Positions 669-20,000 of a stretch of 20,000 bases of DNA are shown here, piece by piece; within the stretch, counting starts at the first letter, position 1; each line of letters opens with the position of its first letter. The notes beneath the pieces are model-generated. The model ran no database searches and had not been told where the DNA came from. It worked only from the letters and a program-made list of their open reading frames with translations. The DNA lies in the NCBI GenBank assembly GCA_016218805.1, contig JACRCW010000026.1:49128-69127 (forward strand). The letters run 5' to 3'. The DNA is from Deltaproteobacteria bacterium. GTDB taxonomy: Bacteria; Myxococcota; JACRCW01. The position numbers and the translations under genes are program-made.

Positions 669-3113
669 TCAGAACGTCTCAAGCTTGAAGGGGAACTTGA
701 TGGGCTTGAGCTCGTCACCCGTGTACGCGTCAAACTTCCAGCCCTGGATGGCGCGCGTCAGGCACTTGCCCACAAACACCTCCGCAAACTCCTCGCTCTC
801 CACGCTCACGCTGCCCGTGCGCCCGTCCCGCTTGATGATCCAGCTCATCTTCAGCACGCCTTCCGCCTTGGACGCGTCGCGCTTGCGCTGGTCCGCCACG
901 CACTTGGTGATGTCGCCCTTGTTGTTCTTCACCACCGTGAGGATGTCTGACTTGGACAGCGTCTCCTTGCCGCCACCGCCGCCGCCGCCGCCCGACGCCT
1001 TCTTGGACTTCTCGTCGCAGCCCTCGGGGTAGAGAATCGGGTCGCAGTCGTCGCGCTTGGGTTTGGGCTTCTCAGCCTTCCGGGGCTCCTCGCGCGGCGG
1101 CGGCTCCTCGTCAATCTTGGCAAACCCGCCCTTCTTCTCGGGCTTCTCTTCGCGCGCGGGCTTCTCCTCGCGGGCGGGCCGGGTCTCGCGCTCCTTGCGC
1201 AGCGGCGGGGACGCGCGCTTCTCCTCGCGCGGCGGTTTTTCCTCGCGCGGGGGTTCGGCGCGGTGAGCGGGCGGGGCGGGGGCGGGTTGCGCGGCGGGTT
1301 GCGCGGGCTGCGCTGCAGGGGCCGGCTGCGCGGGCGCAGGTTGCGCGGCGGTGGGCTGCGCGGCGGGCGCGGGCTGTGCGGGTGAGGGCTGGGCGGCTGG
1401 CGCGGGCTGGGCCGGCGCGTTGGCGGCCACCTGCGTGCCACCGCGCTGCTGGTTGAAGATGGGGCCAAACACCGGCACCCAGCGCGCCCCCGCGGCGGCC
1501 ACCACCACCCCCGCCAGCAGCACAAAGGACAGCCCACCCACGCCCATGGCCACCTTGACCACGGGGCTCATGCCCGCGCGCTGGGCGCTGAACGGCAGGG
1601 ACGTGGTGGAAGAGCCCAGCGACGCGCTCAGCGGCAGCGGCGCCACCGTGCGTTCGCGGCGGGGACGCTCGGGTTCCGGCGGCGCCTCCACGGGCGGCGG
1701 CAGCGACAGCGACGGCAGCCCCACGCCGCTCTTGCCCAGCAGGTTGGGCAGGGGCGCTTCAATGGAGTCGTCCTCGGCGGGTGGCGGCCGGTAGGCACCC
1801 TCCTCGTCCTTGCCCTTGCCGGCGGCCTTGGGCGGGGTGGACTTCTTCCCCTTGAGGCTGGCCAGCTCGTCGTCCACCAGGGAAGCCAGCGCGCTGGCGG
1901 CACCCGGCGTCCACGACGGCGCCTCCTCCTCCTTGGGCGGGGGCGGCGCGGGCTCGGGCTGGGCGGCCTTGGCCACGGACGCCTCGGCGGCGCTGGCCGC
2001 GCGGTAGACGCTGGTCATGCCGCGGGGCCGCCAGGCCTCGTCCGTGGAGTCATCCGCGGCGGGCATCAGCCCCACGCCGGACAGCCCCATGGAGGGCAGC
2101 TGTGAAGTGGACGCGCGTACCGCGGCGGCCGGCTCCTCCGCGGCCATGGGCGGCGTGGACTTCTTCTGCGGGGCCAGCTCCAGCAGGTACTTGAGTTCCT
2201 TGACTTCCTTGAGCGGGATCCAATCCGCCATCCCCGTGCGCCAGACCAGGCTTTCGCGGTCCAGGTCTCCCTTGAGCCAGTGCGCTTCCACCTCCGCCAG
2301 CGGCTTGGGCCCCTGCTGCTCATCCCGAATGGCGACGTACCACTCCACCGCGGGCTTGGATTCCGCCACGGGTGCGCTGCGCGCGGCGGACGCGCCGTTG
2401 ACGCGCTCTTGCGGTCCGCTGGTGGGCTCCTCCTCGCGCGCCTTGTCCTTGCGCAGCTGCGCCATGGCGGCCTGCTGCCGGGCCAGCTCCACCTGCTCGG
2501 TGGAGTAGACCTTGGTGGGCGCGCGGTCCGTGCCCTCGCCGTTGGCGCCAAACAACCCGTCAAACGCGCCGGCTATCTCGCTCTCCAGTTCGCCACCGCC
2601 CTGGCCCGCGCCGTTGCTTCCGGTCACCGCCGGGGCCGCCGCCGCCGCCGCCGCGCGGTGCTTCTCCACCGCGGCCTTGATTTGCTCCTGGTTGGCCACC
2701 AGCGTCGGGGCGTCTGCCTCGGGTGCGGCGTTCATGTTGGCCGTGGGCTTTTCCTCGGCAAAAGCGGGGCTGGGCACTGCGTTCTCCAGGCGGGCCCCGG
2801 ATGGAGCGCTCGGCTGGCGCGTGGGCAAGTTGATCTGAGTCTCCTGGTCCTCACCCGTGCCGTCCTCGGTGGCTTCCACCGCCGGGAGACTGCTCACGGA
2901 CAAGGACCGCCTGGCGCCCTCCCCCTCTCCCGCCGCCATCTTGGCCTGGCTGGTGGACCGGGACCTGCCGTCCTCCTCGCCATTGGCGGCCCTGTCCGGC
3001 CGGACAATGATGACGTGACCGCATTTCTTGCACTTCACCTTGACGCCGCGCGTGCCAACCTTCTCATCCGCGATGAGGTAGTGGGCCTGACAGTTGTCGC
3101 ACACGAACTTCAT
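669..3113 (-). CDS. gltJ: Adventurous gliding motility protein GltJ/AgmX-like (zinc ribbon, GYF_2 domain, single TM, Pro/charged linker, TonB_C-like AgmX/PglI C-terminus), about 814 aa
   Basis: N-terminus MKFVCDNCQAHYLIADEKVGTRGVKVKCKKCGH (zinc ribbon). GYF_2 signature EWYVAIRDEQQGP...LVWRTGMADWIPL. Hydrophobic TM GVGGLSFVLLAGVVVAAAG. C-terminal LSKSDILTVVKNN...CL..AIQGWKF...FPF. ATG at 3113 preferred over the track's 3233 because the recognisable domain begins there. Confidence 0.8.
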   Translation of the reverse strand: MKFVCDNCQAHYLIADEKVGTRGVKVKCKKCGHVIIVRPDRAANGEEDGRSRSTSQAKMAAGEGEGARRSLSVSSLPAVEATEDGTGEDQETQINLPTRQPSAPSGARLENAVPSPAFAEEKPTANMNAAPEADAPTLVANQEQIKAAVEKHRAAAAAAAPAVTGSNGAGQGGGELESEIAGAFDGLFGANGEGTDRAPTKVYSTEQVELARQQAAMAQLRKDKAREEEPTSGPQERVNGASAARSAPVAESKPAVEWYVAIRDEQQGPKPLAEVEAHWLKGDLDRESLVWRTGMADWIPLKEVKELKYLLELAPQKKSTPPMAAEEPAAAVRASTSQLPSMGLSGVGLMPAADDSTDEAWRPRGMTSVYRAASAAEASVAKAAQPEPAPPPPKEEEAPSWTPGAASALASLVDDELASLKGKKSTPPKAAGKGKDEEGAYRPPPAEDDSIEAPLPNLLGKSGVGLPSLSLPPPVEAPPEPERPRRERTVAPLPLSASLGSSTTSLPFSAQRAGMSPVVKVAMGVGGLSFVLLAGVVVAAAGARWVPVFGPIFNQQRGGTQVAANAPAQPAPAAQPSPAQPAPAAQPTAAQPAPAQPAPAAQPAQPAAQPAPAPPAHRAEPPREEKPPREEKRASPPLRKERETRPAREEKPAREEKPEKKGGFAKIDEEPPPREEPRKAEKPKPKRDDCDPILYPEGCDEKSKKASGGGGGGGGKETLSKSDILTVVKNNKGDITKCVADQRKRDASKAEGVLKMSWIIKRDGRTGSVSVESEEFAEVFVGKCLTRAIQGWKFDAYTGDELKPIKFPFKLETF

Positions 3114-3203
3114 GGTCGGCCCACGTCCAGGTGACAGCCCATCGCTTCCTCCGTCCAACGGTCCGTTGGAGGGGAAGATCTGCGTTTCCCATGTGGGATT
3201 GTC

Positions 3204-3233
3204 ACGGTAGCCGCCCGTGATGCGCGGGGTCAA
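3204..3233 (-). promoter_or_regulatory. Possible sigma70-type promoter for gltJ
   Basis: Minus strand TTGACC-N18-TACCGT in the intergenic region. Partial match to consensus only. Confidence 0.3.
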
Positions 3234-6536: not shown

Positions 6537-9020
6537 ATGCGCACGGGCAGGATGCAGGGTTTGGTGGGGTTGGTGCTGGGCGGGATTCCCCTGGCGGCGG
6601 CGCTGACGGCTGTGGCCGGGGCGGGTGCCTGCAGCGGGAGCTCCTCAAGCAGTTCTTCTTCTTCCGGCGGCGGCAGCGTCTGCGGAGACCAGCTGGAATG
6701 CCGCATTGCCCGTGACTGCCAGGGCGCCGGGTTTGCGTGCGTGGTGCCGGACGGCGGGACGGGGTGCTGCGTGAAGGTGGCGTGCACCGCCGACACCGAC
6801 TGCGCGTCTCCCAAGACCTGCGACCTGCGGCGCGGCCTGTGCGTGGTGGACACGTGCGACCCGAGCTTTGCCAACAGCTGCCCGGCCGGCGAGAAGTGCA
6901 TCAACGGCACGGATCCCGTCACGGGCGAGGTGTCCACGGACTGCGTGCCGGTGGCCAACATCCCGCAGGCCACCAAGTGCGAGCTGGACGTGTCCCGCTT
7001 CTCGCTGCGCGCCACCCAGACGCGGCAGCTGAGCCCCACTTTCTACAACAACGCGGGCGCACTGGTGCCGTTTGCCGCCGGGTCCTACGCGTCGTCCGCG
7101 GACGGCACGGCCACCGTCAGCACCACCGGCCTGGTCACCGGCGCGGGCGAAGGCACCGCCACCATCACCGTGACCCCGCTGGGCACCGGCGCCACGCCGT
7201 GCACCGCCACCGTGGAGGTGTACGGGGCACTGGCCGCCAGCGAGGCGCGCGTGGTGGTGTTTGACAACCGCACGGGAGCGCCGCTGTCCGGGGTGACGGT
7301 GCAACTGGACAAGACCGGTGACACCAGCTCCACGCAGACCACGGACGCCAAGGGCTCGGCCAAGTTCACGGGCGTGGCCACGGCGGCGGACATTGTTGCG
7401 GTGACGGCGTTCCCGGCGGACCACACCTGGGTGACCTACGCGTCTCCCGGCAAGGTGGACCTGGCCATGTACCTGGACCCGCTGCTGCCCGCGGGCAAGA
7501 TCGCCGGCGTGTCAGGCACCTTTGACACCAGCCGGGCGCAGCCGCCCACCGGGGACATCAAGCTTGGCCTGGCGGCGTTCTCCATTGCCGGCGCGCTCAG
7601 TGACCTCAACCTGGGCGGACTCATTGGCAAGACGGTGGACACCACCATCACCATTGAGGGCTTTGTGGACAACCAGGTGGTGCCGCTGCCCTCCGGCGTG
7701 TACCTGAAGCTGCAGAACGACGACGTGAAGGGCCGCGTGGACATGTACGTGGACGGGCCGTGTGGCACGGGCGCGGACGCCTGCAAGCGCGTGCTGTGGG
7801 GCCTGGGTGGCCAGGTGTCCATCAACAAGATCGGGCCCATCATCAATGAGGTGGCCGCGGCCGAAAACGTGGACGCGGGCGCCATCCTCTCCGCAGTGCT
7901 GCCGTTCTTCCGGAAGTTCTACCACTACGTGGAGGGCGGCTTCTCCCTGACGGACATCAACGCCCCGGCCAACGAGGCCGATCCGCCGGGCTTTGCGCAG
8001 AACGACGTGGTGGTGAAGCCCAACTACCTGCTGCAGGAGACGGCCATCTGGCAGTTGCCCTCCCTGCCCACGCTCCCCAGTGACAGCACCCAGCACGTCT
8101 CCGGCGCGCTGCTGCTGGCCGGCACGCTGGTGCCCGGTCAGGGCTTTGTGCCGCAGGGCGTGTCCGCCGGGCTGGACGTGTGCACGGACGGCACCAGCAG
8201 CACCTGCATGGTGAGCGAGGCCGCGGACGGCCTGGTGTCCTGCACGGACGATGACACCACCAGCCCGGACGAGTGCGAGGGCATGGTGGCCGGTGACCTT
8301 TCGCTGGACTACGCGCCCCAGCATGACGGCCTGGAGGGCTTCCGCTACGGCGCGGTGGCGGTGGCCCTGGACGTCAACAGCCTGGGCGCAGGGGGCATGT
8401 TCACCTCGGTGCTGGTGGGGTTCTTTGATTCGCTGTCCGGGACCGGCAAGAAGAGCTTCCCCATCAACAGCTTCCTTGGGTTCAACAAGGGCACGTACAC
8501 CGCCGCCACCCGCACCTTTGCGGCCACCACCGCGGTGGACGGGTCGGAGTTCTATCGCCTCAACCTGGACACGGACTCCAAGCCCTGGCTGGTGTACTTT
8601 GCGGCCACGGGCGGCACCTTCAGCGTCAAGGTGCCCGCGGTGCCCACCACCATCACCGGGGACCGCACGGAGAACCTGGACATCCAGGCGTTCAAGCTGC
8701 TGCCCGGCTCAGTGACCGGCGGGCTGCCCGCGTTGGCGGAGTTCAACAGCACCAACTTTGACAAGTTGGTCGACTACACGGGCGCGTTCTCCACGCAGGA
8801 GTGCACGCCGGCCTACCCGGCCAAGGACTGCCTTGTTGACGGAGACTGCAACTTTGGCGGGTTTGAGGATTTCACGTGTGACGGGACCAACAAGGTCTGC
8901 GTCAGCTCGGCGCAGGGCGTGACGTTCAAGTCGGGCAGTTGCCCGGCGGGCGCGGTGGAGAAGACCAGCACGGCGGGCAAGGCCGTGTGCGTCATTCCGC
9001 CGGCCTGCGAGTTGAAGTGA
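6537..9020 (+). CDS. Large Cys-rich lipoprotein with an Ig-like (Big_2) domain and a carboxypeptidase-regulatory-like domain (about 827 aa)
   Basis: GGAGG 6 nt before the ATG at 6537. Hydrophobic signal ending AGAC followed by poly-Ser. Cys-rich modules (C..D.DC.....CD...GLCV). Big_2 signature YASSADGTATVSTTGLVTGAGEGTATITVT. VFDNRTGAPLSGVTV...TTDAKGSAKF. Cys-rich C-terminus. Confidence 0.8.
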   Translation: MRTGRMQGLVGLVLGGIPLAAALTAVAGAGACSGSSSSSSSSSGGGSVCGDQLECRIARDCQGAGFACVVPDGGTGCCVKVACTADTDCASPKTCDLRRGLCVVDTCDPSFANSCPAGEKCINGTDPVTGEVSTDCVPVANIPQATKCELDVSRFSLRATQTRQLSPTFYNNAGALVPFAAGSYASSADGTATVSTTGLVTGAGEGTATITVTPLGTGATPCTATVEVYGALAASEARVVVFDNRTGAPLSGVTVQLDKTGDTSSTQTTDAKGSAKFTGVATAADIVAVTAFPADHTWVTYASPGKVDLAMYLDPLLPAGKIAGVSGTFDTSRAQPPTGDIKLGLAAFSIAGALSDLNLGGLIGKTVDTTITIEGFVDNQVVPLPSGVYLKLQNDDVKGRVDMYVDGPCGTGADACKRVLWGLGGQVSINKIGPIINEVAAAENVDAGAILSAVLPFFRKFYHYVEGGFSLTDINAPANEADPPGFAQNDVVVKPNYLLQETAIWQLPSLPTLPSDSTQHVSGALLLAGTLVPGQGFVPQGVSAGLDVCTDGTSSTCMVSEAADGLVSCTDDDTTSPDECEGMVAGDLSLDYAPQHDGLEGFRYGAVAVALDVNSLGAGGMFTSVLVGFFDSLSGTGKKSFPINSFLGFNKGTYTAATRTFAATTAVDGSEFYRLNLDTDSKPWLVYFAATGGTFSVKVPAVPTTITGDRTENLDIQAFKLLPGSVTGGLPALAEFNSTNFDKLVDYTGAFSTQECTPAYPAKDCLVDGDCNFGGFEDFTCDGTNKVCVSSAQGVTFKSGSCPAGAVEKTSTAGKAVCVIPPACELK

Positions 9021-9077: not shown

Positions 9078-9169
9078 CCCGGTTGCGACGTTTTCCATCT
9101 GGCTGCAGACGCCGGGCGAGCGCGCGGGCTTTCCTTCCCGCACCTCGGCCGGCAGAGGAATTCAGAATC

Positions 9170-10543
9170 ATGGCAGACAACCGCTTGGTGTTGGACATCC
9201 AGCGTTCCGTGGCACCCCGGGTTCCCGGTGGCGTTCCAGAAGACCGCCTGGTGGGTATGGCGCAGGCCGCCACCCGCGCATTTCAGCAGGTGGCGCAGTG
9301 GCGTGATGACGGCAAACTGAGCTTTGCCAAACTGCCCAATGACCGCGTGCTGCTGGAGCAGACCCAGCAGATGGTGAAGGCGGTGCGCGGGCAGTTCCGC
9401 GAGTTGGTGGTGGTGGGGATTGGCGGAGCCAGCCTGGGTGCGCGCATGCTGTGCACCGCGCTGGCGCCCAAGCCCGCCGCCATGAAGGTGCACTTTGTGG
9501 ACAACGTGGACCCGCGGACGGTGGGCGAGCTGTTTGGCCGCATTGACCCGATGGCCACGGTTTTCAACGTGGTGTCCAAGAGCGGCAGCACGCTGGAGAC
9601 CACGGCGCACTTCCTGGTGCTGCGGGACCTGTTGCGCGGGCGGTTTGGGAAGAAGGGGTACGCCGAGCGGGTCATTGTCACCACGGACCCGGACAGCGGC
9701 CCCCTGCACGCCATTGCCGAGCGCGAGGGGCTGCGCACCCTCACCTTCCCCAAGGACGTGGGCGGGCGTTTCTCCGTGCTGTCCCCGGCGGGCCTGTTCC
9801 CTGCTGCGGCGGCCGGCGTGGACATCAACGCGCTGCTGGACGGCGCGCGCGCCATGATGGACCGCTGCAGCACGGACACCGTGCTCAGCAACCCGGCCGC
9901 CCTGCTGGCCACCGTGCACTACCTGGCGGACCGCGAAGTGAACCGGCGGGTGAACGTGCTGTGGTCGTATTCGGATGCGCTGCGGCCGTTCACCGAGTGG
10001 TACATCCAACTGTGGGCGCAGAGCCTGGGCAAGCGCCTGAGCCTCAACGGCACGGAGATCCACAACGGGCTGACGCCGCTGGCGTGCACCGGCGCCCAGG
10101 AACAGCACGGGCTGCTGCAGTTGCTGGTGGAAGGACCGGAGGACAAGCTGGTCACCTTCCTGTCCGTGCTGGACCACCAGGCGCACCTGGAGGCGCCACC
10201 CGCGCAGGATGTCCCGGAATTCGGGTTTCTGGGCGGGATGGACTTTGGGGCGGTGCTGGAGGCGGGCCGGCGCAGCTCTGAGCTGGCACTGCAGGAGGTT
10301 GGCCGCCCGTCACTGCGCATCACGCTGCCGGTGCTCAACGCGCGCGCCATGGGAGAGCTCATCCACCTGTATGAACACGCGGCGGCCTTTGCCGGCGCGC
10401 TGTACGGCGTGGACCCGTTTGACCAGCCCGGCGTGGAAGAGGGCAAGAAGATCGGGTTTGGGCTCATGGGCCGCAAGGGGTTTGAGCCGTTTGCGGAGAA
10501 GGTGCGCCAGAGCGACCAGAACAGCCGCTGGCGCCTCACCTGA
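9170..10543 (+). CDS. pgi: Glucose-6-phosphate isomerase homologue (short type, about 457 aa) with altered active-site residues
   Basis: Motifs VVVGIGG, SKSGSTLET, VGGRFSVLS, QLWAxSLGK, QH, PFDQPGVEEGK. ATG at 9170 follows AGAGGA. Confidence 0.85.
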   Translation: MADNRLVLDIQRSVAPRVPGGVPEDRLVGMAQAATRAFQQVAQWRDDGKLSFAKLPNDRVLLEQTQQMVKAVRGQFRELVVVGIGGASLGARMLCTALAPKPAAMKVHFVDNVDPRTVGELFGRIDPMATVFNVVSKSGSTLETTAHFLVLRDLLRGRFGKKGYAERVIVTTDPDSGPLHAIAEREGLRTLTFPKDVGGRFSVLSPAGLFPAAAAGVDINALLDGARAMMDRCSTDTVLSNPAALLATVHYLADREVNRRVNVLWSYSDALRPFTEWYIQLWAQSLGKRLSLNGTEIHNGLTPLACTGAQEQHGLLQLLVEGPEDKLVTFLSVLDHQAHLEAPPAQDVPEFGFLGGMDFGAVLEAGRRSSELALQEVGRPSLRITLPVLNARAMGELIHLYEHAAAFAGALYGVDPFDQPGVEEGKKIGFGLMGRKGFEPFAEKVRQSDQNSRWRLT

Positions 10544-10633
10544 GTACGCGTCCCCAGAGAAAGCTGATCCTGTGAGGCGCGCTTGCGTGCGGGGTCCGCC
10601 ATCGACGGCAGAGGGCGGGCTGTGAACCACGGC

Positions 10634-10824
10634 GTGGGGCGGGGCTCGTCCGGGCTCGTCCCCCGCCCGGTTCGCTCAACCGCGGGCGCTCCCGCTTCCC
10701 TGACCCCATCACCGCACGGAGAGCAGAGTTGAGCCGAATCCTCTCTCTGCGCCACGGCGGAGGAAGTCATCGCGTCTGAACGGCCCTGCATCTCAATCGG
10801 GCGGGGGACGAGCCCCCGCCCTAC
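10634..10824. repeat. Inverted pair of GTAG-type REP-like palindromes (REP doublet / REPIN-like)
   Basis: Minus strand 10824-10798 reads GTAG-GGCGGGGG-CTCGT-CCCCCGCC-CG. Plus strand 10634-10669 reads GTGG-GGCGGGG-CTCGTC-CGGGCTCGTC-CCCCGCCCG, the same unit with an internal duplication. Spacer 128 bp. Confidence 0.65.
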
Positions 10825-10830
10825 AAGGAA

Positions 10831-10930
10831 CGCGCGGAAGCCCGCGGAAACGTGCGGAAATCCGCGAAAACGAGGAACATCCGCGGAAGCCGCGGAAACG
10901 CGCGGAAAGACCTGCGGGAACCAGAAGGAA
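10831..10930. repeat. Degenerate tandem array of about 10-bp units with a CGCGGAA core
   Basis: cgcgcggaag cccgcggaaa cgtgcggaaa tccgcgaaaa cgaggaacat ccgcggaagc cgcggaaacg cgcggaaaga cctgcgggaa ccagaaggaa. Confidence 0.8.
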
Positions 10931-11170
10931 ACACGCGGGCAGCGCCCTCCGCCACACCCAGCGGTGGGAACAACCTGGCCGCCCATGCGGCACCGGCGCC
11001 TTGGCAGCAGCGGCGCAGACGGAGACCGGTGAGGTGGTGGGCACCAGCCAGGTGCTGGAAGCCCGCTCAAAAGGTCACTTTTCTCCGAGGAGCGGCACTG
11101 AGTCCCCGTTTCGCGCGCCGCGCCAGGGACGCAGTCTGGTCCGCGGCCACCAGCGTTTGTGTCTGGGCGG

Positions 11171-13275: not shown

Positions 13276-14649
13276 CTACTCTCGGTCGAATTGGATCCCC
13301 AGCTTGCCGAGCTTTTCGTACAGCGTGGTGCGGTGGATGCCGGCCAGTTGCGCCGCCTTCTGCACGCTGCCGCCGGTCTGCCCCAGCAGCCGCGTGAAGT
13401 AGCTGCGCTCAAACTCGTCGCGCACGTGGCGGTAATTCCCAGACGCCACCTCCAGCGCGGGACCCGCCACCGCGTGCTCGCCCAGCTCGGACGGCAGGTC
13501 CTCCGGCCGGATCATGGGCGTGGCGCACACCAGGCTGGCGCGTTCCACCACGTGCTCCAGCTCGCGCACGTTGCCGGGCCAGCGGTACTCCATCAGGCAC
13601 CGCATGGCTTCCGGTCCCACCTGCGGCGGCTCCCGCCCCAGGCGTTTCTGCAACTGCGCCAGGAAGTGCTGCACCAGCAGCGGCACGTCCTGCGGCCGGT
13701 CCCGCAGCGGCGGCAGCACCACGCGCACCGCGTTGATCCGGTAGTAAAGGTCCTGCCGGAACTTCCCCTCGCGCACCAGCTTCTCCAGGTCCTGATTGGT
13801 GGCGCACACCAGCCGCACGTCGGTATGCGCCAGCCGGCGGCTGCCCACCGCGTAGTACTCACCGTTCTGCAGCACGCGCAGCAGCTTGGGTTGCAGCGCC
13901 AGGGACAGGTCACCAATCTCGTCAAGAAAGAACGTGCCGCCGTTGGCCTCCGCGCAGAAACCGTCACGCGAGCTGACCGCGCCGGAGAATGCGCCCTTTT
14001 CGTGACCAAACAGCTCGCTTTCCATCAGGTGCTCCGGGATGGCGGAGCAGTTGAGTGACACAAACGTCTTCTGCGCGCGGTTGCTGAGGTGGTGGATGTA
14101 CTTGGCGAACAGGTCCTTGCCCGTGCCGGACTCCCCCTGGATGAGGATGGAGATGTCCGTGGTCGCCACGCGCGCGATGAGGTCCATCACCTGGGTCATG
14201 GCGCGTGAGCGGCAGATGATGTTGTCACGCGAGAACTTGTCGGCGACCTCCTGGCGCAGGCGGCGGTTCTCGGCGACGAGCTCGCGGTGCGCCACGGCGC
14301 GCTCGATGACCAGTTCCAGCTCGGACATCTCAAACGGCTTGCGCACGTAATCAAACGCACCGTTTTTCATGGCCTGCACGGCGGTCTCAATGGTGGCAAA
14401 CGCGGTGACAATGATGACGGGCGCGTCCGGGTCAATGCGGCGGAACCGCTCCATGCCCTGCAGGCCGTCCACCTTGGGCATGGCCAGGTCCGTGACCACC
14501 ACGTCCGGGCGGAAGGCGCGCATGGTTTCCTCGGCCTCCTCCACGGCGGCCGCGGTCCGCACCTCATAGCGCGCCGGGTCCAGCCAGCGCGCCAGCATCT
14601 CGCGGGCGCTCTTCTCGTCATCCACGACGAGGATCCTGGCCGTCTTCAT
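13276..14649 (-). CDS. Sigma54-dependent response regulator (NtrC/AtoC family: REC, AAA+, Fis-HTH)
   Basis: ILVVDDE, TDLAMP, Walker [24 protein letters not shown], Walker [43 protein letters not shown]. Confidence 0.96.
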
Positions 14650-16556
14650 GTTGCCTCCGGTTCCCTGCCGTTGACCGGCAGCATGATGCTGAAGGTGGCG
14701 CCGTGCCCGGGTGCGGACTGCACGCGGATGCGCCCGCGGTGCCGCTCCACCACCTGGTGCGCAATGGACAGGCCCAGGCCCGTGCCCGTGGCCACCTTGG
14801 TGGTGAAAAACGGGTCAAAGATCTTCTCCAGGTGCGCGGCGTCAATCCCGCTGCCGTTGTCCTGGAACTCCAGTTCCACGTTGTCCCCGCTGCAGCGTGA
14901 GCGCACCGTGATCACCTTCTCCGCCTGCCCCTCCAGCGCGTCCACGGCGTTGAAGATGAGGTTGACAAACACCTGCTTGAGCATCTGTCCATCACAACGG
15001 AGCACAAACCCGGCGAGGCCCAGCTCCTCCACCACGCGCACCTGCGCCTTGCGCAGGCGGTAGCGGGCCATCACCACCGCTTCGCGCACCAGTGCGTCGG
15101 GGTCCTCAGGGCTGAAGCGGATGTCACGCGGGCGGGCAAACTCCCGGAAGCGTTCCAGCAACGCAATGGCGCGCGCGTTCTGGTCATGGATCTCCTTGAC
15201 GTCCGCGCGGCACGCATCATCCGGCGGCATGGCCCGCAGCAACAGGCTGCAGTAGCCCTGGATGCTGTTCATGTAGTTGCCCATCTCGTGCGCCAGGCCG
15301 GCGGCCATGGTGCCCATGGAGATGAGGCGGTCATGGCGGCGCAACGCGGCCTCCGCCTTCCGCTCCCGCGTGACGTCCACCAGCGTGACCACCACGCCGC
15401 CGCCGCTGTCCCCGGTCCGCAGCGGGTAGAGGTGGAACACCAGGTCGCGCGCCTCGGCAAGGTCCATGGCGCCGGGCGGGCGGCAGGTGAGCTCCACGCG
15501 CTGCGCTGCGCCGGCGGCCGCCGCGCGGGCGGCGTGCACCAGACGCTCACCGTCGTCAGGGAGCAGCGCCCCCAGCTGCACGCCGGCATCCGGTTGGCCC
15601 AGCCGCGCCAGGTGGAGCCGCGCGCCGCGGTTGGCGCTGACCACCTTGCCCTCGCCGTCCGCGGTGATGATGCCCTCCTCCATGCACTCCAGCACGCTCT
15701 CCAGGTACGCCTTGGCCTGGCGCAGGTCCGCGGTGACGCTGAGCACACGCGCCGCCAGGTTCTCGTTGAGGTCGCGCAGCTCGGTGACCAGGCGCGCGTT
15801 GCGCGCGCGCTCGTCGCGCACGTCGCGCACCAGCTCGCGAAACGCGGACTGCAGCACGCCCACCTCGTCACGCTCCGGCGTCTCCGGGATGTCCACCGTA
15901 TCCAGCGCGTTGCGCGTCACGGCGCCGGCCGCCGCCGTCAGCTCGCCCAGCGGGCGTGTGATGCGCCGCACGTAGAGGGTGGCAATGAACGCACCCAGCA
16001 CCAGCCAGAACGCGCCCGCTGCCGCCGCTGCCACCAGGCTGGCCACCGCCTGGTCGCGCATCTCGTCGGTCCGGAAGCGCAGCGTGACGTGCCCCAGCAC
16101 CGTGGTCCCGCGCATGATGGGTGACCCCACGTCATGCTCCGTGTAGCCGCGGAACAGCCCCAGCAGGCTGGGGGGGCGGCGCCGCAGGGTCATGCCGTGC
16201 AGCTTTTCCGGCGGGATGCGGGAGCCCACGCGGGAGCGGTTGGTGTGCGCCAGCACCTCGCCGTCACGCGACACGATGGCCAGTTCCATCAGGTCCAGCG
16301 ACTCGCGCACGCGCGCGATCACCTCGTCAAACCGGTGCGGGTGCGCCCCGTCCATGAGTTCCACGCAGGAACTGGCCACGCCCTGGGCCATCACCGTGCC
16401 CTCGCTCTGCACGTGGTGGTCGTAGGCTTCCAGTTTCTCGGACAGGGAGGTGGCCACCTGCCCGCCCACAATGAGCGTGATGATCGCGGACAGCGGCACC
16501 ACCAGGCGCGTGCGCAGTGACGTCCCGCGCAGCAGGGCCAGCAGGTCGCGGATCAT
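14646..16556 (-). CDS. Membrane sensor histidine kinase (2 TM, periplasmic sensor, HAMP, PAS-like, HisKA, HATPase), about 636 aa
   Basis: ATG at 16556 overlaps the upstream TGA. HAMP ITRPLGEL...DEVGVLQSAF. H-box AAGLAHEMGN. N-box QVFVNLIFNAVDA. DNGSGI, IFDPFFTTK, GTGLGLSI. Confidence 0.95.
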   Translation of the reverse strand: MIRDLLALLRGTSLRTRLVVPLSAIITLIVGGQVATSLSEKLEAYDHHVQSEGTVMAQGVASSCVELMDGAHPHRFDEVIARVRESLDLMELAIVSRDGEVLAHTNRSRVGSRIPPEKLHGMTLRRRPPSLLGLFRGYTEHDVGSPIMRGTTVLGHVTLRFRTDEMRDQAVASLVAAAAAGAFWLVLGAFIATLYVRRITRPLGELTAAAGAVTRNALDTVDIPETPERDEVGVLQSAFRELVRDVRDERARNARLVTELRDLNENLAARVLSVTADLRQAKAYLESVLECMEEGIITADGEGKVVSANRGARLHLARLGQPDAGVQLGALLPDDGERLVHAARAAAAGAAQRVELTCRPPGAMDLAEARDLVFHLYPLRTGDSGGGVVVTLVDVTRERKAEAALRRHDRLISMGTMAAGLAHEMGNYMNSIQGYCSLLLRAMPPDDACRADVKEIHDQNARAIALLERFREFARPRDIRFSPEDPDALVREAVVMARYRLRKAQVRVVEELGLAGFVLRCDGQMLKQVFVNLIFNAVDALEGQAEKVITVRSRCSGDNVELEFQDNGSGIDAAHLEKIFDPFFTTKVATGTGLGLSIAHQVVERHRGRIRVQSAPGHGATFSIMLPVNGREPEAT

Positions 16557-17506
16557 GGCGCCTCCGCGCCGGCGTCCGGGCCGCGCCGCTCCGGCATGAA
16601 GTTGTGGCATTCCCGGCACTGCCGCTCCGGTTCCTTGTCCGCCTCCTCCTTGTGGCAGGCCACGCAGTCCGCGCGCGTGGACATCCACGTGTGCGGGCGG
16701 TGGCACGCGTCACACCGCTGGTGGTCTGGCAGTCCGTGCAGCCCGTGCCGGTCCTGCTGCTTGTGGCAACCCGCGCAGCTGCTCCAGCCGGTGTCCTCGT
16801 CCGTGTGCGGGTGGTGGCAGGCTGAGCAGTCCCGCTTGGCCATGGGCGCATTGCTGGGGAAATGCTCCTCCAGTTGCTCGCGCGCGCCGTGGCATTGCAG
16901 GCAATTCTCCTGCGGCGCCTTGATGTCCTTTTCCGCGGTGAGGAAGTTGTGGCAGGACAGGCAGTGCAGGCGCTCCATGCCGGTGGCCTGTATCACCTGT
17001 TTCTCATGGCATTCGCGGCAGCTGTCCAGGGCAATGCCCACGCCGTGCATGGAGTTGGCGTGGCACTTCACGCAGGAGGTCTTCTCCTGCACCACGTGCA
17101 CGCGGTGACCTTCGGAGGCGTTGATCTGCGGCCAGTTGCGGTCATGCCGGAGGTGGCAGGCGCCGCACGCATCCACGGCCACCTTGGGCTGGTGCGCCTT
17201 GGTCCCGTCATCCGCGGACCTCCCCCCCAGCACCATCAGCACCGCGCCCAGTGCTTCCCGCTGGGACTGGTGGTGGCACTCCTGGCACACCACCATGCGG
17301 TGACTGCCGCGGGTCCACAGTGCGTACTCGCTGCGCATCTCATGGCACTGCCCGCAGAAACGCGGGTCCCGGTCCACAAACTCCTTGAACCGCATGAACC
17401 CCATGGTAGACGACACGATGAGCACCGGGACAATCCCGTACAACAGCACCCACAGCAGCGCGCGCCGCCAGGTCACCGGCTGGCGGGGAGCGCGCGGGCG
17501 GGTCAC
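16553..17506 (-). CDS. Membrane-anchored 12-heme cytochrome c with a NapC/NirT/NrfH-like N-terminal region
   Basis: One N-terminal TM. 12 CxxCH motifs in 317 aa (CGQCH, CQECH, CGACH, CVKCH, CRECH, CLSCH, CLQCH, CSACH, CAGCH, CDACH, CVACH, CRECH). FCGQCHEM...Y..W..GSH....CQECH is the NapC/NrfH signature. Confidence 0.9.
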   Translation of the reverse strand: MTRPRAPRQPVTWRRALLWVLLYGIVPVLIVSSTMGFMRFKEFVDRDPRFCGQCHEMRSEYALWTRGSHRMVVCQECHHQSQREALGAVLMVLGGRSADDGTKAHQPKVAVDACGACHLRHDRNWPQINASEGHRVHVVQEKTSCVKCHANSMHGVGIALDSCRECHEKQVIQATGMERLHCLSCHNFLTAEKDIKAPQENCLQCHGAREQLEEHFPSNAPMAKRDCSACHHPHTDEDTGWSSCAGCHKQQDRHGLHGLPDHQRCDACHRPHTWMSTRADCVACHKEEADKEPERQCRECHNFMPERRGPDAGAEAP

Positions 17507-17880
17507 AGCTCAAAGCCCTCCAGCGCTTCGGGTTCATGGCAGTCCAGGCAGGACTTCTTGCGGATGCTCCAGCTGAAATGCGGCGTGAACGCGTGGCAGG
17601 TGTGGCAGTGACCCGCATCCTCGTGGTCCTTGTGTGAGAACTTCTCGCCTTTGTCGTAACGCGCGCGGTTGTGGCACTCAAAGCAGGACAGGTTGTCCAG
17701 GATGGGCGTGCGCGCCGCGCGGGCCGGCGCGGCGTGCGCCGGGGCAACCAGCGTGCCCCCCCCGGCCGCCAGCTTCTCGCCCACCTCTTGCATGGCCACG
17801 GCGAGCAGGCCCATCAGCGCCACCAGCGCCAGCCCTGCCACCCAGCGGGTGAGCGTGGACGACGACACCGGCGCGTTCAT
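17503..17880 (-). CDS. Small triheme cytochrome c with an N-terminal signal/anchor
   Basis: 125 aa. Hydrophobic N-terminal helix. CFECH, CHTCH, CLDCH, plus FSHKDH (c3/c7-like distal His pattern). Confidence 0.88.
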   Translation of the reverse strand: MNAPVSSSTLTRWVAGLALVALMGLLAVAMQEVGEKLAAGGGTLVAPAHAAPARAARTPILDNLSCFECHNRARYDKGEKFSHKDHEDAGHCHTCHAFTPHFSWSIRKKSCLDCHEPEALEGFEL

Positions 17881-19505
17881 GGCGTCTTCCCTCCGGGCGC
17901 GGCGGGGTCGGCCGGCGGCGTAGGCGGCGGCGGCGCGTTGGCAGCCTCATGCGCTTTGAGCATCGCGTCAAACTCCGCGCCGTGCTCCTCTTCAAACACC
18001 TCGCGGGTCATGCGGCCGGTGATGAACACCCAGGACATGGGGAACACCGCGGGGCGCAGGTGCACGTTGTAGAAGTGCCACAGGAAGATGGCCAGCGCGG
18101 CCAGGATGGCCTCATCCGCGTGCGCCACGCGCATGATGGTGAACACCCAGCCGGGCACAAACTTGGCCGTCCACACGGGGAACCACAGCACAAACCCTGA
18201 CGACACCATGATCACCACGCCCCAGAACACCGCCCAGTAGTCGAACTTCTCAAAATAGGAGAACCGGGCAAACCGCGGCTTTTCGTCACGCAGGCGGAGG
18301 AAATACAGGAGATTGTCAATGACGTCCTTCACGTCCTTGGGCGTGGGTGCCATCACCGGCCCCAGCCGGCCCTTCACGACGAGATAGACCAGGTAGCCAA
18401 GGTGGTACACCGAGGCGATGATGAGGCCCACCGCGGACACGCGGTGCACCAGGCCGGTGAGGTCAATGCCGCCAAACATCCGGGCGACGCCCAGGCTGGC
18501 GTCTACCGTGTGCGCGCGCAGTGGCAGCCCGGTCAGCACCAGCATGGTGAAGGACAGCGCCATCAGGCCGTGCTGCAGGCGCTGGTGCACGTCAAAGCGC
18601 TGCACCTCAGCGGGGACCGCCTTCTCCGCCTGCGGCGGCAGCGGCTTGTGGTTGCGCTTGCGCCAGATTTGCGACGCCAGGTCCAACAGGACGTGGGCCA
18701 TGAGCGCAAAGATGGTCAGGAACGTCAGCCACACAAAGAACTTCTTGCCCCAGTACGCGATGGGTTCCACTTCGCGCTCTTCCGGGCTGTGCGCAAACGC
18801 ATCCGAGAACTCCACGGTGGAGCCGGAATGGCATTCGCCGCATTTCTTGGCGCGGTCCTGCTTCATGTCAGTCAGCGCGTGGCTGCCGTGGCAGTCCGCG
18901 CACCCGGGCGCCTTGGGGGACCCCAGGTGCAGCTTGCGGCCGTGGAAGCTGTGCTCGTAGGTCTCCACCACAACGGGCTTGGGACCCTTGTCGCCCATCT
19001 TCTTGGCGTCTGCGTGGCAGGCAGCGCAGCGCTCGTTCATGAGCAGGCGCCGCGCGTTGGGCGGCATCGCGCTGAGTGATTTCATCTCGTGCAGGTCGCC
19101 GTGGCAGTCCAGGCAGAACGGCGCGCCTTCGCGCTTGTCTTCAAAGAACGCCTTGCCGTGCTTGCTCTCGCGGAACTCGTTGGCCTGGTCTTCGTGGCAG
19201 CCCAGGCACGCGGTGATGGCCGCAGGGTTGCCGCCCCGCCCGTCCTTCACGCTCTCGTCAATCTCGGGTTCTTCTACGTCCTCGTGCGGGTTGAATTGGT
19301 AACCCGTGTGGCATTCGCGGCAATTGTTGTCCCCGTGGACGCTCTTGCCGAACACCTTTTCGGAGAACCGCGCGTCCTGGTGACAGGGGGTGCACCACTT
19401 GGGGCTCTCGGGCGGAGGCTCGGCCCTGGCCGTGGCGGCGGGCCAGAACACCACCCACGCAAGGGCCCATCCCCCCAGCCAACCAACGCGCGCGCACGAT
19501 CGCAT
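17877..19505 (-). CDS. Multiheme cytochrome c / cytochrome b fusion (CbcL-like; 7 CxxCH plus FdnI-type cytochrome b domain), about 542 aa
   Basis: AAGGAGG before the ATG at 19505. Sec signal ending ATARA. CTPCH, CRECH, CLGCH, CLDCH, CAACH, CADCH, CGECH. Then about 5 TM helices with RF..HQRLQH, LVHR...YH, RFSYFEKFDYWAVFWG, AH.DEA.LA....WHFY. Confidence 0.9.
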   Translation of the reverse strand: MRSCARVGWLGGWALAWVVFWPAATARAEPPPESPKWCTPCHQDARFSEKVFGKSVHGDNNCRECHTGYQFNPHEDVEEPEIDESVKDGRGGNPAAITACLGCHEDQANEFRESKHGKAFFEDKREGAPFCLDCHGDLHEMKSLSAMPPNARRLLMNERCAACHADAKKMGDKGPKPVVVETYEHSFHGRKLHLGSPKAPGCADCHGSHALTDMKQDRAKKCGECHSGSTVEFSDAFAHSPEEREVEPIAYWGKKFFVWLTFLTIFALMAHVLLDLASQIWRKRNHKPLPPQAEKAVPAEVQRFDVHQRLQHGLMALSFTMLVLTGLPLRAHTVDASLGVARMFGGIDLTGLVHRVSAVGLIIASVYHLGYLVYLVVKGRLGPVMAPTPKDVKDVIDNLLYFLRLRDEKPRFARFSYFEKFDYWAVFWGVVIMVSSGFVLWFPVWTAKFVPGWVFTIMRVAHADEAILAALAIFLWHFYNVHLRPAVFPMSWVFITGRMTREVFEEEHGAEFDAMLKAHEAANAPPPPTPPADPAAPGGKTP

Positions 19506-19542
19506 TCGAGTTCCTCCTTGGGGTGTACGGGGGAACTGCAAG

Positions 19543-19557
19543 GCAATCGCGGTGCCA
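19543..19557 (-). promoter_or_regulatory. Sigma54 (-24/-12) promoter of the cytochrome/two-component operon
   Basis: Minus strand TGGCAC-CGCGA-TTGC matches TGGCAC-N5-TTGC. Predicted +1 near 19531, leaving a leader of about 26 nt containing AAGGAGG. Confidence 0.88.
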
Positions 19558-19587
19558 AATATCTTGCGTGCAATGCGCGGTATTTTC

Positions 19588-19799
19588 CGTCGAGAATACC
19601 CGTCAATATCGGGCGGGTCCGTCGGACAGTGCCTTCGCTTCGGGTGCCGGTGGGCCGCGCATTTGTCGGAAGATCTCGACGCAAAAGCCCGACAGCGCGT
19701 AGCCGATTCGCGACATGGGCGGGAAGGACTGCCGTCCCGGGCAACTGCGGAGGGTAGCGCGTTCCCGACGGTGCGACTGCCGTTCGACGAACACCGACA
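19588..19799. promoter_or_regulatory. Array of imperfect TGTCG-N8-CGACA palindromes, candidate enhancer (UAS) sites
   Basis: 19588 CGTCG-N8-CGTCA; 19607 TATCG-N8-CGTCG; 19664 TGTCG-N8-CGACG; 19677 CGACG-N8-CGACA; 19698 CGTAG-N8-CGACA; 19753 GGTAG-N8-CGACG; 19782 GTTCG-N8-CGACA. Confidence 0.6.
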
Positions 19800-20000
19800 A
19801 ATGTGACGTAACAGCAGCGCCCGCCGAGGGGGCGGGCGCGCGACTGCGAGGTCTTGTGGACGTACTTGATTAGCGGGGCCAGGGCCCGGAGGCGTGATGT
19901 AGGGGGAGATCCCATCGGCGACTCGGCTGATCAACGCGGCGGTGGTTGCTGCCGATCCTGCTTGCATGAAGGACACGGACCCCCGGGACAGGCGCATCGC

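Follow-up and report, generated by a model that had tools for sequence, protein, structure and literature searches.

Glucose-6-phosphate isomerases (Pgi) of the short type carry a general-base glutamate in the motif QLxxESxGK, and an engineered E290Q variant of the Bacillus stearothermophilus enzyme was reportedly described by Meng in 2001. Without this Glu, C1-C2 proton transfer falls about 2,000-fold in published mutants, and the E-to-Q replacement in the B. stearothermophilus enzyme lowers kcat/KM 2,100-fold (PMC4420525, in the portion available to us, Table 2). The Ser of the GGS motif is a phosphate ligand, and a His contributed by the partner subunit opens the sugar ring (available text of PMC9436075 and PMC8354745). 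The Pgi fold is also known in other roles, as the human autocrine motility factor/neuroleukin and as an adhesin of Lactobacillus crispatus (PMC8354745, same portion). These moonlighting proteins, a precedent for non-catalytic functions on this fold, stay active enzymes. RpiR-type regulators and the glucokinase regulatory protein are non-catalytic SIS-domain sensors that use a sugar-isomerase-type pocket for binding.

Here we analyse a Pgi homologue, P0001, that lacks the catalytic Glu and is encoded in a 20,000-nucleotide stretch of a Myxococcota genome (the window; genome G000). P0001 shares family and predicted fold with the short-type Pgis (TM1385, 2q8n; 1b0z/2pgi/1c7r; 1zzg; 7nss, PMC8354745), likewise has Gly at the small-group position, and contains the Arg, His, Lys and Glu143; unlike them, it has Gln for Glu, Ala for Ser and a remodelled His loop, and an intact long-type Pgi is present in the same genome. 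It carries the same substitution in the same column as engineered E290Q (available part of PMC4420525), but in P0001 the change is natural, is joined by further changes in the site and persists in a genome. Unlike the SIS-domain sensors, which are stable families, P0001 is an entire Pgi that has gained no DNA-binding or signalling domain and whose loss is private to one tip, and unlike the moonlighting Pgis it is probably no longer an active enzyme. No description of a natural Pgi without the catalytic Glu was found in the open full-text literature, which mostly does not extend to subscription papers, and the available part of PMC9426556 contains nothing on the Pgi Glu mutation.

The window gene and its active site

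The features on which the analysis rests are the following, all on the forward strand of the window:

6537 to 9020, +: gene for a large Ig-like (Big_2) secreted protein or lipoprotein, whose conserved presence next to pgi identifies the native locus
9154 to 9159, +: Shine-Dalgarno-like AGAGGA, 10 nt 5' of the ATG, a putative ribosome-binding site by sequence
9170 to 10543, +: P0001, full-length Pgi homologue of the short type (Thermotoga/Geobacillus-like), 457 aa, without the catalytic Glu
9428 to 9430, +: Ala87, codon GCC, where GIGGS has its phosphate-binding Ser (sequence, contigs, family alignment)
9575 to 9598, +: phosphate loop SKSGST and Glu143, retained (sequence, alignment)
9767 to 9769, +: Arg200 of GGRFS, retained (sequence, alignment)
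10019 to 10021, +: Gln284, codon CAG, in place of the general-base Glu of QLxxESxGK (sequence, alignment, contigs)
10097 to 10111, +: QEQHG loop, residues 310-314, with T310Q, D311E and S314G and the ring-opening His313 kept (alignment)
10265 to 10279, +: E366G, G369S and V370S (comparison with relatives)
10445 to 10447, +: Lys426 of QPGVEEGK, retained (sequence, alignment)

The reading frame (9170-10543, +) encodes 457 residues with no internal stop. Its product scores 138.1 bits against PF00342 in a profile search (cut-off 22) and is predicted by AlphaFold2 with a pLDDT of 91.6 and a pTM of 0.91; Foldseek superposes this model on T. maritima 2q8n with a TM score of 0.89 and an rmsd of 1.7 Å, indicating a predicted Pgi fold. 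P0001 falls under the cut-off of all eight NCBIfam equivalog models that it matched (best 292.6 against 487), a comparison in which intact orthologues are unscored. The original prediction had listed Q284, A87 and QEQHG beside a retained SKSGxT, GGRFS, ring-opening His and C-terminal Lys in a full-length frame, and all of these were confirmed in the sequence. Around the gene, no sigma-70-type promoter was found where none was expected by chance, two terminator-like sites are no more than chance would give, and the region 5' of pgi is weakly conserved relative to G001, a genome of the same family.

Gln284 aligns to the general-base Glu of 2q8n, 1zzg (T. thermophilus), 3ifs (B. anthracis) and 1b0z (G. 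stearothermophilus), and the same alignment to these four solved Pgis offers no substitute Glu on column 284, which disposes of the proviso that another Glu might occupy the catalytic position. Among 150 distant family representatives (clustered at 50% identity), this column is Glu in 147, Gln in two and Val in one, and column 87 is Ser in 144. P0001 keeps 11 of 13 first-shell residues, and the ring-opening His313, its helper Glu143, the GGR Arg200 and the C-terminal Lys426 are all in place. In the phosphate-binding set Ser87 has become Ala and Ser136, Lys137, Ser138 and Thr141 are unchanged, so the Ser/Thr complement is incomplete. Of 8 relatives with a damaged site 6 have lost E366, compared with 2 of the 61 others, and because it is lost mostly where the site is damaged we infer that it is a second-shell residue.

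The Gln codon is unlikely to be an artefact of assembly. A contig of sample X1 (9458-10601, depth 22.6) crosses 10019 and reads CAG with no other letter; a contig of sample X2 (9832-10085, depth 3.7) likewise has no other letter there, and another X2 contig (8874-9677) crosses the A87 codon. This support, which agrees with the argument of the original prediction against a sequencing error, consists of assembled contigs rather than raw reads, with X1-X3 belonging to one study and X1 possibly being the source sample; the pieces listed for X3 and X4 have 10019 outside their coverage, and X4, which had a small share, was left aside. An assembly slip as the source of Q284 was rejected, as the contigs of two samples carry CAG. 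Two low-depth X1 records (2 and 4), at window positions 9351-9854 and ending short of codon 284, are about 83-85% identical to P0001 and represent the pgi of a related organism in the same sample.

Loss of a catalytic residue within an intact frame and predicted fold, the mark of a pseudoenzyme, is what P0001 displays: it groups with the short Pgis by sequence and fold and fails two defining features of their active site. Since the same substitution costs 2,100-fold in the published mutant (PMC4420525, as far as its available part goes), the isomerase activity of P0001 is likely nearly gone, in agreement with the inactive protein that the original prediction gave as one option, and with S87A and the remodelled His loop on top of E-to-Q it is probably near zero. 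P0001 is better not annotated as a functional isomerase.

Homologues, second isomerases and the native locus

Glu284 is present in all eight close homologues of P0001 (70-81% identical) and in 110 of 111 further homologues among the matches listed; Ala87 occurs in one of the six close homologues that cover position 87. The idea that E-to-Q and S-to-A define a clade does not hold, with Gln in none of the eight and Ala87 in one of the six. In the group around P0112, the one other Gln match (n=60), Glu is gone in five proteins (three Gln, two Gly) and His in a sixth, and in the tree the nearest neighbour of every Glu-less protein still has Glu. A Gln-defined Pgi subfamily, considered both near the window and around P0112, was ruled out, the Gln and Gly tips being scattered. 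The close homologue P0007 (70%) carries independent S87A, K137R, H313D and Q419H and has a more heavily eroded site, and the damaged sister-group proteins P0112, P0249, P0294, P0332, P0333 and P0348 have lost Glu, His, Lys or Arg in full-length frames. The sub-branch of P0112, P0293 and P0294 looks relaxed throughout. The 150 representatives yielded three more damaged proteins, one of which (P0249) is already in the P0112 group.

To judge from these sequences, active-site loss is recurrent and independent, at single tips. Altered specificity, the other half of the original proposal, is unlikely as a shared trait because the damaged relatives lose different residues. Among the representatives, the short Pgis P0255 and P0277 are heavily damaged at the site and each about 40% identical to the nearest fetched relative; in P0255 nearly all first-shell residues are gone. 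A search for shorter homologues gave fragments only, and a metagenome scan with motifs private to P0001 returned three distant loci.

The genome holds a second Pgi. This long-type protein (contig C72, 549 aa, 29% identical to P0001) has every motif intact (GIGGS, QQGDMESNGK, GTNGQH, FDQWGVELGK), which bears out the proposal to look for a canonical pgi. Its contig ranks third of 86 in typicality of tetranucleotide composition for the genome, and contamination of the bin was dismissed on this ground. In the tree of long Pgis the deep nodes are unsupported and the G000 sequence stands apart from the pair from G002 and G003, two genomes of the same class; dnaE is close to the long Pgi gene in G000 and also in G070 (flanks of just 1.5 kb were available for most of the 35 loci compared), and transfer is thus only one possible origin of the long Pgi. 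G001 has a different second Pgi, a third type 33% identical to P0001.

First-shell positions, 13 in all and drawn from PMC9436075 and PMC4420525 (with Ser or Thr allowed at 136), were compared in 30 genomes, namely G000, G001 and the best 28 of 51 matches to P0112, a non-random sample. Of the 12 genomes with two Pgis 7 show departures, against none of the 18 with one, counts that include non-independent kin and are given without a P value; four of the seven belong to one genus with a common Q419E, which leaves about four events. Coverage is limited to 6-11 of the 13 positions for six genes, four from single-Pgi genomes and two from two-Pgi genomes. The Glu itself is missing only in G000 among these 30 genomes, and the short copy has no internal stop codon in any of the 12 two-Pgi genomes.

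The window gene is evidently no fresh duplicate: it occupies a conserved locus and is the short-type Pgi native to the lineage. G001 has identical gene order around an intact pgi, and there, as at 8 of 13 other short-pgi loci, the short pgi is immediately preceded by a homologue of the Ig-like gene. The locus shared with G001 contradicts the earlier suggestion of a paralogue in the sense of a new duplicate. With P0001 as query, no short-type Pgi was found in G002 or G003 (94% and 82% complete), so the gene can be dropped. The window pgi is the last gene of its run, and its neighbourhood pointed to no functional partner, the genes 3' of it varying by lineage.

Several features of the surroundings are recorded here as observations. 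The Ig-like gene (6537-9020, +) is of an unknown family with at least three paralogues in G000 and adjoins pgi across several families; its product found no named relative at a usable score. At the sister-group loci L139-L142 and L144-L146, pgi is followed by a gene for an FHA-GGDEF diguanylate cyclase and often by mutL. In the window, positions 10544-11020, 3' of pgi, contain GC-rich palindromic repeats whose inverted arms are 21 nt and 16 nt long, together with direct repeats of the GGAAA type; with 42 BLAST matches on 28 contigs of the genome (self counted), the region looks like a dispersed REP- or MITE-like element. Elsewhere, 669-3233 (-) encodes a protein with a zinc ribbon, a GYF domain and an AgmX tail, similar to the gliding protein GltJ (NCBIfam 297 against a cut-off of 450) and in keeping with a Myxococcota host, and 13276-19997 (-) contains multiheme cytochrome c and cytochrome b genes, then a HAMP-PAS histidine kinase and a sigma-54 response regulator.

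A second glycolytic enzyme of G000 offers a parallel. On contig C28 the order is a GAPDH-PGK fusion, another PGK and tpi, this second PGK being the following feature:

G000, contig C28, 75663 to 76724 (locus L047, 1468 to 2529), +: degenerate native PGK, 354 aa, open frame (comparison with G001)

This protein is 39% identical to the PGK of G001, lacks about 35 residues by deletion, and is altered in motifs that we take to be functional. G002 and G003 also combine the fusion with a native PGK that is partly degenerate, in a milder form, and G001 has neither, so that a degenerate, full-frame native PGK is present in all three genomes in which the fusion was seen; a full second PGK was found only in G000, G002 and G003 among the 29 genomes searched. 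The PGK frame could have been kept to protect translation of tpi. Polarity of this kind gives no protection to the pgi frame, because pgi ends its run.

Rates and patterns of change

P0001 breaks 4 of 50 family-invariant columns (S87A, E284Q, D311E and S314G), all at the site, so that the multiple active-site changes of the original prediction stand; it breaks none of the 21 invariant columns outside the site, and five intact full-length orthologues break none of the 50. Within three residues of first-shell positions, P0001 departs at 7 of 56 residues and the intact orthologues at 3 of 283; away from the site the figures are 21 of 242 and 82 of 1292. For P0001 alone the difference between site and remainder is not significant (Fisher p 0.22-0.48), and its changes are even over conservation classes (5/66, 5/53, 6/44 and 12/135). 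The focus on the site is seen in P0007 (15/56 near the site against 15/242 elsewhere) and in six damaged sister-group proteins (56/267, or 21%, against 71/794, or 9%). In these comparisons, residues found in just one living sequence stand in for the changes on its branch.

Away from the site, too, the damaged proteins change at roughly double the rate (8.9% against 4.3%). The terminal branch of P0001 is 0.16, compared with 0.04-0.11 for seven intact or partial homologues, and some damaged relatives with full frames have branches of 0.36-0.45. P0001 is 75% identical to its G001 orthologue, with TPI at 77% and enolase at 78%, and intact orthologues are 77-85% identical to the G001 Pgi. Its codon use is normal (GC4 at the 39th and CAI at the 49th percentile of 2560 long ORFs). 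Pairwise dN/dS, from one orthologue's DNA, is 0.26, a value that cannot be trusted given the GC content and the near-saturation of synonymous sites.

Six of the 28 private codons of P0001, four of them at or near the site, lie more than one base from any codon for the orthologue residue, and the loss is therefore not recent. In simulations of short neutral decay, the absence of stops, the conservative changes and the site focus were jointly reached in at most 0.3% of runs (P <= 0.003; 1500 runs per setting, no indels, statistics picked after the data had been seen). Protein searches detect unbroken frames only, so broken copies are hidden from these counts. Overall, the loss looks old and appears to lean toward the active site.

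Explanations for a short Pgi without its glutamate

The explanation we place first, with about an even chance of being right, is that P0001 is a folded, nearly inactive pseudoenzyme retained for a non-catalytic role, with the long Pgi doing the chemistry. The long-type protein on C72 likely carries the isomerase work; redundancy would have freed the active site from selection, and the fold would have stayed under it. The most likely role would be to make protein contacts for which the long type is no substitute; P0001 would do so as a dimer, presumed from its likeness to solved Pgi dimers, and a sugar phosphate may still bind weakly in the pocket. Such binding is possible because the two groups of damaged proteins together have 7 departures at the phosphate end against 29 at the sugar end, but P0001 itself has S87A. 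Of the sensor, scaffold and heterodimer-partner roles named in the original prediction, the analysis favours none over the others. A distinctly less probable, though possible, account is that the gene is a redundant native pgi without a job, drifting under weak selection against misfolding and bound for loss. Selection of that kind on an expressed but useless protein would equally spare the fold and free the site, and dead tips with no dead clade fit dead ends better than a fixed new function; the even spread of P0001 changes over conservation classes is what general relaxation would give, the damaged proteins run about twice as fast outside the site, the short Pgi was not found in G002 or G003, and the native PGK of G000 has decayed much further. 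Short neutral decay, however, fits poorly, with several codons changed by more than one step; codon use is undisturbed, some relatives combine long branches with full frames, no short copy in the 12 two-Pgi genomes has a stop, and polarity cannot guard the frame of a gene that comes last in its run.

Changed or residual chemistry, as a glucose-6-phosphate anomerase, on another sugar phosphate, or with Glu311 as a relocated base, seems improbable to us. The 11 first-shell residues kept would suit it, as would the retention of His313, Glu143, Arg200 and Lys426, the ring-opening role of the His, the anomerase activity reported for mammalian Pgi (available part of PMC9436075) and the longer acid that D311E places beside His313; yet a phosphate ligand is gone with S87A, the His loop is remodelled by three changes, in other damaged relatives it is the His, Lys or Arg that is missing so that no single chemistry is spared, and in the accessible portion of PMC8354745, on the B. 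bacteriovorus enzyme, the residue at the 311 position has no listed ligand contact. That P0001 is simply an ordinary active Pgi, or an assembly error, is very improbable: the frame is full length and the predicted fold and most motifs are intact, but CAG stands in the contigs of two samples, four invariant columns are broken and the same mutation costs 2,100-fold (PMC4420525, in part).

Retention as a folded pseudoenzyme may be one instance of something wider, which we put forward more tentatively than either the retention itself or a drifting, jobless gene: the native short Pgi of this Myxococcota branch would have a second, non-catalytic job, incoming isoenzymes would take over the chemistry, and the dead natives would serve as glycolytic scaffolds. 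If so, whole families would keep a short Pgi beside a long one, with the short copy repeatedly shedding site residues and keeping its fold, and a further example, from the same genome and class, would be the degenerate PGK next to the GAPDH-PGK fusion.

On sequence evidence the Glu-less Pgi is real and recurrent in kind, and private to one genome at this locus. P0007 and P0112 are annotated in their source as plain glucose-6-phosphate isomerase, and such entries can mislead metabolic reconstructions. If P0001 is a relic, it would belong to a snapshot series of a displaced housekeeping gene eroding from the active site outward; if it is retained for a purpose, nature would have separated catalysis from moonlighting in a core enzyme of glycolysis, with intact close orthologues as controls.
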